Below, one piece after another: positions 2,662-10,056 of a stretch of 10,056 nt of DNA. Where the stretch lies: the UHGV virus genome UHGV-1666018; one strand, written 5' to 3'. The position numbers were made by a program, and so were the translations under genes. This DNA comes from a virus. Position 1 is the stretch's first letter. Each line of letters opens with the position of its first letter. Under the pieces are notes generated by a model, which saw only the letters and a list, made by a program, of their open reading frames with translations, was not told the DNA's origin and made no database searches.

Positions 2662-2836
2662 TTGTTTAAGGTATGCAGATGCATTACCTTACCCCCTTCA
2701 GGCGCGTGTCGTGATTTTCTAACCTGTATTTAACGGGCTTTAAAATCTGCGTGAAGCGCCTTTGCATTTTTTCCTGAAAGCACTTCCTGAAATCCCGCAA
2801 AACCCGCCCTGAAAAACACCGGCTTATGCTGCCGGA
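2662..2836 (+). promoter_or_regulatory. Non-coding region upstream of gene I with direct repeats; candidate late promoter or operator
   Basis: 175 bp with no credible ORF. Contains three direct copies of CCTGAAA (2773-2779, 2786-2792, 2808-2814), two CCCGC motifs, and a -10-like TAAAAT at 2741-2746 with a poor -35. In Mu a C-activated late promoter lies upstream of I. Confidence 0.3.
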
Positions 2837-3961
2837 ATGAAGACGAAAAACACGCCCAAACTTGCTTATGCCATTCTGAATGCCATCAGCCTGTCCGCAG
2901 ACGGGGACGGTGACTGGTGTCAGATCATGCCTGCCGGTCGGGTAAAGGCCCGTGACGGTCGCCCGGAAAAACCGGCTGAAGGCTGGCTGATTAACCGTGC
3001 GACCGTTGAGCGCATGGTATCCCGGGTTGTGGCGCTCAATCAGCCGGTAAAAATTGACTACAACCACCAGACCCTGATTAAGGGGCATCCGGCACCGGCT
3101 GCCGGTTTTGTCATGGCCTCACCGGAAAACTTCCGCTTCAGTGAAGAGCGGGGTTTTGAAGTGCGTCCGGACTGGAACCCTCCGGCCATTGAACACCTGC
3201 GCAATAACGAGTTTCCCTGGTTTTCCCCGGTGATTGGTTATGACGAAATCACCGGGGAACCTGTTGAGCTTCGGATGCTGGCTATTACCGGTGACCCCGG
3301 TCTGACTGGCATGAGTCCTGTCGCCGCACTGTCGGCGGATGACCTTTATAACGCCTTAAACCCTCCTTTAAAGGACACCTCCATGAATGAGCAATTACGC
3401 CAGTTGCTGACGGCGCTCGGTCTGACCGTGGCTGACGGTGACGAATTTACGCCGGAACTGGGCACGGCGGCGCTGTCTGCCCTTACCGGGATCAAAACCC
3501 GTGCGGATGCGCACGACACCCTGAAAACGCAGGTTGCCAGCCTGTCGGCAGAGCTGGAAACCGCAAAAGGCACACCAACTGGCGGCACTATTGATCTGAC
3601 GAAATACGTGCCCGTTGAGACGTATAACGCCCTGCGTACCGAATATGTCGCGCTGTCGGCACAGCACGGCAGCACCACGCTGGAGCAGTTGCTGGATAAG
3701 GCCGAGTCCGAAGGACGCATTTTCAAAAGCGAACGCGGATACATGGAAGGACTCGGACAACAGATTGGCGTTGCAGCACTTTCTGCACAGCTTGACGCCC
3801 GCCAGCCGGTTGCGGCTCTGACCACTCTTCAGACCGACACCGTGACCGTGCCGGATAAAAAGACCGCCACAGCCTCACTGTCGGCTGAAGATATCGCCGC
3901 CGCCCATCTGCTGGGTAAAACTGAAGCCGAGTTCCTGAAAATGAAAGAGGAAATGCAATAA
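2837..3961 (+). CDS. I: Head maturation protease / scaffold protein, Mu I (gp32) family
   Basis: 374 aa ORF between G-like and major-head genes. The C-terminal half is Ala/Leu/Glu/Gln-rich and predicted helical, as expected for a scaffold. Its stop overlaps the T start (TAATG). Confidence 0.8.
   Translation: MKTKNTPKLAYAILNAISLSADGDGDWCQIMPAGRVKARDGRPEKPAEGWLINRATVERMVSRVVALNQPVKIDYNHQTLIKGHPAPAAGFVMASPENFRFSEERGFEVRPDWNPPAIEHLRNNEFPWFSPVIGYDEITGEPVELRMLAITGDPGLTGMSPVAALSADDLYNALNPPLKDTSMNEQLRQLLTALGLTVADGDEFTPELGTAALSALTGIKTRADAHDTLKTQVASLSAELETAKGTPTGGTIDLTKYVPVETYNALRTEYVALSAQHGSTTLEQLLDKAESEGRIFKSERGYMEGLGQQIGVAALSAQLDARQPVAALTTLQTDTVTVPDKKTATASLSAEDIAAAHLLGKTEAEFLKMKEEMQ
3383..3961 (+). 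CDS. Possible nested scaffold protein from an internal in-frame start (Mu Z-like)
   Basis: In-frame ATG at 3383 preceded by AAGGA (3371-3375) at about 7 nt spacing. Downstream sequence is the scaffold-like half of I. Mu makes Z by internal initiation within I. Confidence 0.35.
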   Translation: MNEQLRQLLTALGLTVADGDEFTPELGTAALSALTGIKTRADAHDTLKTQVASLSAELETAKGTPTGGTIDLTKYVPVETYNALRTEYVALSAQHGSTTLEQLLDKAESEGRIFKSERGYMEGLGQQIGVAALSAQLDARQPVAALTTLQTDTVTVPDKKTATASLSAEDIAAAHLLGKTEAEFLKMKEEMQ

Positions 3962-9063: not shown

Positions 9064-10056
9064 ATGGCAAAAAACCTGAAAGCCTCCCTGATTGTCGATT
9101 TACTCGGCAATATTTCTGCCAAATCCCGCCAGTGGTCACAGGAGCTGGGGGCATTCTCCCGTTCCGGCAGGACGGGGCTGGGTGGTCTTGGAAATGCAGC
9201 ACGTCGTGCCGGTCAGGAGACAGAACTTGTCGGCTCCCGTATGCAGCGAACGCTTGCCGGTGTTCGTGGCAGTATCCGCACGGTGACGTCAGATTTTGAC
9301 CGCCTTCAGGGCAGCATTACCGGCACCATCGGGCGGATAAGCAACCTTTACGGGATGCTGGCGGGAGGGGCTGCGGTCTACGGGTTTAATAAAGCCTTTA
9401 TCCGCCCGGCCGCAGAGATGGAGAACTATATTCTGCGTCTCAACGCCATTAATCATGGCGATACGGCAAAAACGGAAGCAGTGAAAGCCTGGGCGGTACA
9501 GAACGCCAAAGACACCACCTGGGGGCTGGCGGGGGTTATGCAGGAATACGCCTCCAGTCGCGGGTTCGGTATGAGTGACAGGGAAGCCCGTCGCTTTATT
9601 ACCATGCTTCAGGATCAGGGCGGCTATCACGGCTGGTCACTGTCAGATGCACAGGGTGCGTCCCTGCAACTCAAACAGATGTTTGCCCGCCAGAGTATCC
9701 AGGCAGCGGACGCCAATATTCTGACCGGATACGGGATTAACGTTTACCAGTTGCTGGCCGATAAGCTGGGTGTAAACCAGAAGATCATCCGTGAGAAAGG
9801 CGAGAAAGGAAAACTGGGACCGGACAGCATTCGCCTGTTATTTCAGGTGATGGCCGAACAGGCAAAAGGTGCCCAGAAAAACGCCATGAATTCCTGGACG
9901 GGAATGACGTCCATGATGGGCGATGTCTGGGACGGATTTGCCCGCGAGGTGATGGCAAAGGGACCGTTTGACAGCCTGAAAAAGAGCCTGAAAGGCTTTC
10001 TGGATTATGCTGATGCGGCACAGAAAAGCGGCTTACAGGATAAGCTGGCCACACAG
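9064..10056 (+). CDS. Tail tape measure protein, N-terminal part (3-prime truncated by window end)
   Basis: ATG at 9064 opens a frame with no stop to the window end (331 codons), so it is absent from the ORF track. The translation MAKNLKASLIVDLLGNISAK... is Ala/Gly/Gln-rich and sits after the chaperone pair, the tape measure position. Confidence 0.8.
   Translation, partial: MAKNLKASLIVDLLGNISAKSRQWSQELGAFSRSGRTGLGGLGNAARRAGQETELVGSRMQRTLAGVRGSIRTVTSDFDRLQGSITGTIGRISNLYGMLAGGAAVYGFNKAFIRPAAEMENYILRLNAINHGDTAKTEAVKAWAVQNAKDTTWGLAGVMQEYASSRGFGMSDREARRFITMLQDQGGYHGWSLSDAQGASLQLKQMFARQSIQAADANILTGYGINVYQLLADKLGVNQKIIREKGEKGKLGPDSIRLLFQVMAEQAKGAQKNAMNSWTGMTSMMGDVWDGFAREVMAKGPFDSLKKSLKGFLDYADAAQKSGLQDKLATQ

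Follow-up and report, generated by a model that had tools for sequence, protein, structure and literature searches.

Probable homologues of the phage Mu strong gyrase site and late promoter PI in the gap between genes G and I of an Sp18-like prophage

The UHGV virus genome UHGV-1666018 is represented here by a stretch of 10,056 nucleotides, referred to as the window, which on the basis of its sequence is part of an Sp18-like, Mu-type Escherichia coli prophage. Its open reading frames (ORFs) occur in the order portal, F (minor head), G, I, T (major head), adaptor and tail sheath, an order that matches the late genes of phage Mu. The subject of this analysis is the gap between genes G and I, at positions 2662-2836. 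At 175 bp it is the largest gap between plausible genes in the window, as an earlier note on this DNA had stated. The gap is predicted to comprise two known Mu elements, a central strong gyrase site (SGS) and an activator-dependent late promoter, and is largely ordinary. We consider it very probable that approximately positions 2668-2765, together with a left arm in G, are the gyrase site and that positions 2786-2836 are a late promoter of the PI type. This reading draws on homology, position and conservation in the DNA itself, and is extended from Mu, and from published work on a nearly identical O157:H7 prophage site, to cleavage by gyrase, binding of an activator and the place where transcription starts. 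Only one feature may be new, namely a conserved repeat that abuts a start codon without a Shine-Dalgarno (SD) sequence, combined with a predicted leaderless start. The features of the locus are as follows.

2188 to 2661, + strand: gene G (virion morphogenesis or neck protein; PHROG 26, E 6e-42)
2668 to 2690, no strand: predicted SGS core, an imperfect palindrome, with a cut expected from Mu at about 2679-2682
2691 to 2765, no strand: predicted SGS right arm with phased A/T tracts, ATTTTCTAA at 2713-2721, TATTTAA at 2727-2733 and TTTAAAAT at 2739-2746
2766 to 2785, no strand: variable spacer with CCTGAAA copy 1, the most variable intergenic bin (24% non-majority bases among close relatives)
2786 to 2809, + strand: predicted C-type late-activator box CCTGAAATCCCGCAAAACCCGCCC, with CCTGAAA copy 2 and both CCCGC motifs, of which only the first is conserved
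2808 to 2814, + strand: CCTGAAA copy 3, in the promoter spacer, overlapping a rival -10 candidate, GAAAAA (2811-2816)
2819 to 2835, + strand: inverted repeat CCGGC-ttatgct-GCCGG, enclosing the -10 and ending 1 nucleotide before the I ATG
2825 to 2830, + strand: predicted -10 hexamer TATGCT, with the Mu late -10 pattern tA..cT, invariant in the family
2836 to 2838, + strand: predicted first transcribed nucleotide, on or adjacent to the A of the I ATG, placed there from Mu
2837 to 3961, + strand: gene I (head maturation protease or scaffold; PHROG 328, E 2e-105)

The G-I region is matched in 228 of the 5,426 complete genomes that were searched. A 701-bp query for this region is 100% identical to a prophage of E. 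coli 102651, 97.3% identical to O157:H7 strains, and 95-97% identical to prophages in a further 214 complete E. coli genomes, a large number of them O157:H7. The 102651 prophage, designated L002, is 96.3% identical to the whole window and serves as a stand-in for the whole prophage (around G-I, subtracting 17601 from an L002 coordinate gives the window coordinate). The phage Mu sequence used for comparison is designated L003. All genes of the prophage late region are on the + strand. Conservation within the family was measured over 15 distinct close relatives. Against Mu I, the I protein has about 47% identity by tblastn and 50% in a MAFFT alignment, and its N-terminus, MKTK, is common to relatives.

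The larger part of the region, at approximately 2668-2765, is a predicted homologue of the Mu SGS. The earlier note recognized neither this gyrase site nor the similarity of positions 2696-2746 to the Mu SGS. Between the G stop codon and a conserved block of A/T tracts there are 51 nucleotides in both the window and Mu, and therefore the two sequences align without gaps. The block common to both reads GATTTTCTAACCTGTATTTAACGG in the window and GATTTTTAAACCGGTATTTAACGG in Mu. When a third lineage (A1, with an I protein that is 62-71% identical) is included in the MAFFT alignment, the columns CGCG..CG...TTTT..AA...GT.TT.AACGG are invariant, in DNA that is non-coding. The Mu record has its gyrase cut at 17879/17880, in the same G-I gap and 20 nucleotides after the G stop codon. 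By the ungapped alignment, this cut maps to approximately 2679-2682, which is the centre of the imperfect palindrome formed by AAGGTATGCA (2668-2677), ga, and TGCATTACCTT (2680-2690). Because the Mu cut is so near to the G stop codon, the gyrase footprint of approximately 130 bp extends into G, and the left arm of the SGS would be the 3' end of gene G. Measured from the predicted cut, the right-arm tracts are located at about +37, +50 and +62 in the window, and at +36, +48 and +59 in Mu.

Within the family, the outer arms of the palindrome (AAGGTA/TACCTT) are kept, and its centre (2675-2682) varies without compensation. The allele of O157:H7 F8492 has two differences from the window in the 166 bp of 2600-2765, one of which is at the palindrome centre, and positions 2700-2759 are nearly invariant in the close relatives. 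An nhmmer profile of the conserved block finds further lineages that were not used in building it, with E values of 4e-8 to 5e-3. The matches are always on the + strand, 100-250 nucleotides upstream of I, and their consensus consists of three TTTTRAA tracts that are 22 and 11 bp apart. The predicted site is also central, with about 19.0 kb of the prophage, which is approximately 39.7 kb long, to its left (47.9%, compared with 48.7% in Mu); the prophage ends were inferred from a split motA-like pseudogene and an ACCAG duplication, and are good to a few base pairs only. The A/T content over 2700-2836 has a period of approximately 12 bp that none of 2000 shuffles reaches, and for the 79-bp right arm alone the corresponding p is 0.06.

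The SGS is located between gpG and gpI in both Mu and FluMu (PMC2628397). In Mu, this central site is needed for efficient replicative transposition, and its right arm, which contains phased bending motifs, is essential (PMC10052514; PMC6379681; PMC2628397; PMC3820752). The site from the Mu-like prophage of O157:H7 Sakai is the one exception that is able to replace the Mu SGS, and strong specific gyrase cleavage, processive supercoiling and support of Mu replication have been reported for it (PMC10052514). In the window, host DNA gyrase would bind the predicted site and wrap approximately 130 bp, with the phased A/T tracts of the right arm helping the wrap. The enzyme would then cut near 2679-2682 and supercoil the DNA processively, and this supercoiling would bring the prophage ends together for transpososome assembly at the onset of replication by transposition.

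The 3' third of the region is a predicted homologue of the Mu late promoter PI. The earlier note had proposed an activator-dependent, PI-like late promoter without a -35 upstream of I, and this proposal is supported by the comparison with the Mu late-promoter C sites that the note had called for, in which the mapped Mu PI aligns without gaps from the activator box to the -10. In this MAFFT alignment, the box corresponds to ACTCAAATAGCATAACCCCAGA of Mu PI at an equal distance to the -10, CCTGAAATCCCGCAAAACCC of the window is aligned with ACTCAAATAGCATAACCCCA of Mu PI, and TATGCT is aligned with CAAACT of Mu PI and CACACT of the third lineage. The distance from GCAA at 2797 to TATGCT at 2825 is 28 nucleotides, and the ATAA-to-hexamer distance in Mu is likewise 28 nucleotides at Plys (TAGACT), PI (CAAACT) and Pmom (TAAGAT). 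There is no -35, as the sequence 17 bp upstream of TATGCT is ACCCGC, and a promoter scan called no sigma-70 -35/-10 pair on the + strand. The sequence GAAAT at 2789 was considered as the ATAA equivalent and was rejected, since its 36-nucleotide spacing is unlike that of Mu, and the ungapped alignment and other lineages point to GCAA at 2797.

Mu late promoters are known to have a -10 and no -35, and the Mu C site is centred near -43.5 with the consensus TTAT-N5-6-ATAA (PMC2582627; PMC12867686). The Mu PP promoter contains CCATAACCCC, with a 28-nucleotide ATAA-to-hexamer spacing and the hexamer TATCCT (PMC4461284). The published Mu late promoter oligonucleotides, with 20 nucleotides downstream of the start, put the starts approximately 7-8 nucleotides after the hexamers (PMC4461284 Table 1), and the PI start approximately 8 nucleotides after CAAACT (PMC4461284).

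The same box and spacing are found at two other late-gene positions of the prophage, which further favors a late promoter upstream of I. The box WWWTYCCGCAAAW occurs exactly three times in the 40.7-kb L002 prophage, always on the + strand and before late or cargo genes: at 12208 (between the C homologue and lysozyme), at 20391 (before I) and at 36358 (before a DUF6645 gene). At all three sites TAnnCT follows CCGCAAA by 22-23 nucleotides; its distance from the box at 12243 is the same as at the site before I, and at approximately 36392 it is one nucleotide closer. L002 also encodes a protein of the Mor/C family (11786-12208), which is 40% identical to Mu C (E 2e-37). In nine independent I-gene lineages, an element resembling the C box is present 27-28 nucleotides upstream of an nAnnnT hexamer, and one of these lineages has CTGATTTACCGCAAACCCACC followed by TAAGCT, with a GCAA-to-hexamer spacing of 28 nucleotides. 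Among the close relatives, CTGAA(A/G)TCCCGCAAAACC and CGGCTTATGCTGCCGG are essentially invariant, the single exception being a variant with CGGCCTATGCTGCCGG, in which the change is outside the TATGCT hexamer.

The box CTGAAATCCCGCAAAACCC, whose centre is approximately 40-45 bp upstream of the start, would be bound by a Mor/C-family activator from another part of the prophage, and the bound activator would enable sigma-70 RNA polymerase to initiate from the -10 TATGCT without a -35. The promoter at 2786-2836 would in this way drive the head operon, which consists of I, T and the following genes.

Two further sites in L002 relate to late activation. The third box, at L002 36358-36400, is downstream of an invertase gene and is followed by TATTCT, 22 nucleotides after CCGCAAA. 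It precedes the gene for a 684-amino-acid DUF6645 protein, which suggests a late-expressed cargo gene. At L002 38825-38838, the Mu C consensus, in the form TTAT-N6-ATAA, is matched perfectly by TTATTCCCGCATAA, which is located directly after a terminator-like hairpin and 12 nucleotides before a DUF826 gene.

Several observations weigh against the assignment of the gap to an SGS and a PI-type promoter. The near-invariance of 2700-2759 adds little, because conservation in the family is likewise high in the flanking gene G. The window family is without the first TTTTRAA tract that is seen in most lineages, and has an extra outer tract, TTTAAAAT. A proxy based on strong and weak bases, derived from a published 133-bp gyrase consensus, did not place the Mu SGS near the top in Mu, and it gives no support, because this positive control failed. 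As for the promoter, the box is an imperfect match to the Mu C consensus (ccATAAcCcCRSac; TTAT-N5-6-ATAA), and the Mor/C activator gene is outside the window, being known from L002. No convincing site for a fourth late promoter of the PP type was found in the prophage. Finally, chance estimates for the box are only indicative, because the box pattern was derived from the same sites.

The start codon of gene I is abutted by a second inverted repeat (CCGGC at 2819-2823 and GCCGG at 2831-2835), which the earlier note did not list. Its loop contains TATGCT, 6 nucleotides from the I ATG, so that A2837 is the 7th nucleotide after the hexamer. As RNA, the repeat folds with -9.6 kcal/mol and a z score of -3.4. 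An Rfam scan of the whole window and of 2640-2860 gave nothing meaningful in the G-I region. No SD sequence is present upstream of the I ATG, which is preceded by GCTGCCGGA.

Homologues of I were gathered by IMG/VR scans, first with the I protein and then with an alignment; a contig search with the single I protein as query gave no confirmed relative. The upstream regions of these homologues (36-99% identity) were reduced to 26 lineages that are less than 75% identical to one another (L037-L116, L034 and L036). In 25 of the 26, a stem of at least 5 bp ends 0-6 nucleotides, and mostly 0-1, from the I start, and these GC-rich repeats comprise at least 14 different stem sequences (combined Fisher p 2e-16 against shuffles). 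A comparable stem is found at 6 of 54 other gene starts in L002 and at 6 of 50 in Mu. Motifs resembling an SD sequence at -16 to -5 are present in two of the 26 lineages. An nAnnnT hexamer at -12 to -7, ending exactly at -7, is present in 12 of them, against a background of 6% (p 1e-8). This hexamer is not merely a closing A-T pair of the stem, because it is found in the loop, across the loop or in the 3' arm. In Mu and its closest class, the hexamer is directly 5' of a repeat with a long loop, and approximately 25 nucleotides separate the hexamer from the ATG.

Related structures occur at lysis promoters. In the Mu lysis promoter (L003 10448-10486), CTGCCATCA, which comprises the end of the -10 and the discriminator, pairs over the lys ATG (-13.9 kcal/mol). 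In L002 at 12241-12278, GTTACGCTG, which contains the -10, pairs with CAGCGTAAC, 1 nucleotide before the lysozyme ATG (-19.2 kcal/mol, z -6.45). The 5' arm is upstream of the native start and the 3' arm is at the translation start in the window, Mu Plys, the Plys-like site of L002 and Mu PI, a placement that relies on predicted transcription starts except in Mu.

These features suggest a leaderless I mRNA whose translation from read-through RNA would be blocked by fold-back. Because RNA from the late promoter is without the 5' arm in both classes, the hairpin is possible only in read-through RNA or in DNA. The late-promoter RNA, which is without this arm, would be translatable. Read-through RNA, including transcripts that run from host DNA into a prophage inserted at random, would form a hairpin directly next to the start codon and would not be translated. 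If transcription began a single nucleotide later, the start codon would be lost. The leaderless, fold-back model is put forward as a hypothesis, because transcription starts outside Mu are predicted rather than mapped. We entertain only tentatively its extension, in which most Mu-like phages have a leaderless start and a co-varying repeat that silences read-through RNA, as a general safeguard for late genes that operates at lysis promoters too.

A mini-ORF, ATG CTG CCG GAA TGA, is also present at 2826-2840, in an ATGA overlap with the I start; it would exist only in read-through RNA and could be due to chance. The analogous mini-ORF in Mu (L003 18036-18059) reads ATG ATG AGC AGC AGG ACA TGA.

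Alternative explanations were considered for the repeats, the -10 and the two hairpins. The motifs listed in the earlier note are all present, with coordinates that are correct to within 1 nucleotide: three copies of CCTGAAA in 42 bp (2773-2779, 2786-2792 and 2808-2814), paired CCCGC (2794-2798 and 2803-2807) and TAAAAT (2741-2746). In favor of an array of activator or repressor sites with TAAAAT as the -10, as the note implied, the repeats are real and locally dense, and TAAAAT is conserved in the close family. Shuffles predict approximately 1.4 copies of CCTGAAA per 10-kb window, and 10 are observed, most in coding DNA; this baseline is too low, because CTG-AAA is a common codon pair in coding DNA. 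However, copy 2 of CCTGAAA and the first CCCGC are the only ones of these motifs that form part of the conserved box. In close relatives copy 1 reads CCTGTCA or CCTGGAA, copy 3 reads CCCGAAA, CCCAAAA or CCTGAAAATT, and the second CCCGC reads CCGGC, CCTGC, CCAGC or CCCGT. All three differ even in O157:H7, and the expectation that related prophages keep the array is not supported by the 15 relatives. TAAAAT is part of the conserved right arm of the gyrase site rather than a -10: its position reads TATGAAT in Mu and GTTGCTC or TTTGAAA in other lineages, with no conserved -10, there is no box 28 nucleotides upstream, and the promoter scan made no + strand call. An array of this kind is very unlikely, and the repeats may simply be a reflection of the phased A-tracts. 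Another reading takes GAAAAA (2811-2816) as the -10, with a start inside the 5' arm of the repeat and a leader of approximately 15 nucleotides without an SD sequence, in place of a leaderless mRNA. CCTGAAA copy 3 is homologous to the GAAAAT/AAAAAT hexamers of Mu-class lineages, and 2811-2816 itself reads GAAAAT or AAAAAT in relatives. Moreover, CCCTGAAAAACACCGGC is like CCCCTGAAAATGGCC of the Mu-class lineages, where the repeat follows the hexamer directly, and the equivalent hexamer of Mu (CAAACT) is the mapped -10. On the other hand, GAAAAA is without T at its last position, is only 14 nucleotides from GCAA with no box-like sequence 28 nucleotides upstream, and falls in a stretch that is variable in relatives. 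The other two box-bearing sites of the prophage have no hexamer at this place, but have TAnnCT within one nucleotide of the TATGCT position. This placement of the -10 is therefore judged unlikely, and TATGCT is preferred. In sum, the earlier note is right in part: its central promoter idea is supported, and most of its assignments of single motifs are wrong.

The palindrome at 2668-2690 had been listed as a hairpin in the earlier note, and might be an RNA element that ends the G message, either a terminator or a stabilizing 3' hairpin, instead of a gyrase core. The palindrome is real, begins 7 nucleotides after the G stop codon, and as RNA folds better than shuffles (-10 kcal/mol, z -3.1; 1 of 200 shuffles folds as well). 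An RNA hairpin is nonetheless highly improbable, because the stem is followed by ACCCCCTTC and not by a T-run, most inner-stem changes among relatives are uncompensated, and no comparable hairpin is found at the aligned place in Mu or the third lineage, that place in Mu being the mapped gyrase cut. The terminator scan likewise made no + strand call. The scan did call a terminator on the minus strand (CCGGCAGCATAAGCCGG followed by TGTTTTTCAG), and so the inverted repeat at 2819-2835 might keep antisense RNA out of G. Yet one call is the level of shuffles (0.9 expected), the stem is only 5 bp, its equivalents in other lineages are without a minus-strand T-run, and the late-region genes of the prophage are all on the + strand. 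Such a role for the repeat is hardly credible. For both hairpins the preferred reading is as given above, with the palindrome as the predicted gyrase core and the repeat as a possible fold-back element at the I start.

Several other observations were made in the window and its relatives. A sharp mosaic boundary is present at approximately 2760 and 2840-3380 of the window. G and the gyrase site are nearly invariant within the family, the N-terminal two-thirds of I (2840-3380) varies by 10-40% per 20-bp bin, and the I proteins drop to 73-79% identity next to identical upstream DNA. In the lineage L055-L061, the region at approximately 150-290 is matched by the gyrase-site profile on the minus strand as well as on the + strand, which is consistent with a nearly two-fold symmetric site. 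Two further CCTGAAA copies, 12 nucleotides apart, are found in the tape-measure gene (9975-9993), where they are probably the CTG-AAA codon pair rather than a signal. The 125-bp gap between F and G is an insertion, because F and G overlap in Mu. A tRNA-like element is located in this F-G intergenic region, at 2062-2149 on the minus strand, and is antisense to the late genes. In a local search it scored 27.8 bits with the Rfam tRNA model (gathering score 29; E 3e-4). It has a canonical GGTTCGA T-arm and a 26-nucleotide insertion in the anticodon/variable region, and is annotated as tRNA-OTHER in RefSeq; ARAGORN gave no match.

Sp18-like prophages are common in pathogenic E. coli, and appear to retain two elements of Mu, its central gyrase site and its late promoter of the PI type. 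Their retention helps in annotating such prophages and in judging whether they can still replicate. The right-arm profile, with its three phased TTTTRAA tracts, could provide a simple signature for sites in other Mu-like elements. The side result, which combines a co-varying repeat, a start without an SD sequence and a hexamer 6 nucleotides from the ATG, could matter more than the region itself. If the leaderless, fold-back model is true, it would show how a phage that inserts into host transcription units at random prevents expression of its lysis and head genes before its own activator acts. Fold-back would suit a phage whose insertion sites are within host genes.

The closest known system is the SGS of Mu, reportedly described by Pato, Howe and Higgins in 1990, for which the Sp18 prophage of O157:H7 Sakai is said to supply a tested counterpart (Oram and Pato in 2004). 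The predicted site of the window shares with the Mu SGS the location between G and I, the position at approximately 48% of the genome, the distance from the G stop codon and the phased A/T tracts of the right arm. The cores are different: the window has an imperfect palindrome, whereas in Mu AAAATC...GATTTT flank the cut. Compared with the O157:H7 prophage of the same family, the site is nearly identical, with the two differences in 166 bp given above.

The late promoters of Mu that depend on C were reportedly characterized by Margolin, Rao and Howe in 1989. The predicted promoter has in common with PI, Plys, PP and Pmom the missing -35, the tA..cT pattern of the -10 and the activator box 28 nucleotides upstream of the hexamer, and in both phages a Mor/C activator is encoded by the same phage and the box is repeated at other late promoters. 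The box itself is different, being CGCAAAACCCGCC in the window and ccATAAcCcCRSac in Mu, and between the activator and Mu C identity is only 40%. The I mRNA of Mu has a leader, because its -10 and ATG are approximately 25 nucleotides further apart, whereas the hexamer of the window is 6 nucleotides from the ATG.

For the repeat at the I start, the nearest parallel is the inhibition of IS10 and IS50 transposase translation by fold-back, reportedly found by Davis, Simons and Kleckner in 1985 and by Schulz and Reznikoff in 1991. In these elements fold-back protects transposases from outside transcription. In each case the inverted repeat straddles its own transcription start, so that the native transcript is without the 5' arm, and read-in RNA folds and occludes the start of translation. 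This is a working analogy and not a family relation, since the genes in the window are phage late genes instead of a transposase, and the transcript of the window class is also predicted to be leaderless. Among E. coli phages and transposons, leaderless mRNAs are exemplified by lambda cI transcribed from PRM and tetR of Tn1721. Like these, gene I has an ATG without an SD sequence and a predicted start at the A of the ATG. It differs from them in that its transcription start is a predicted one, and in that the gene is a highly expressed structural gene and not a regulator.

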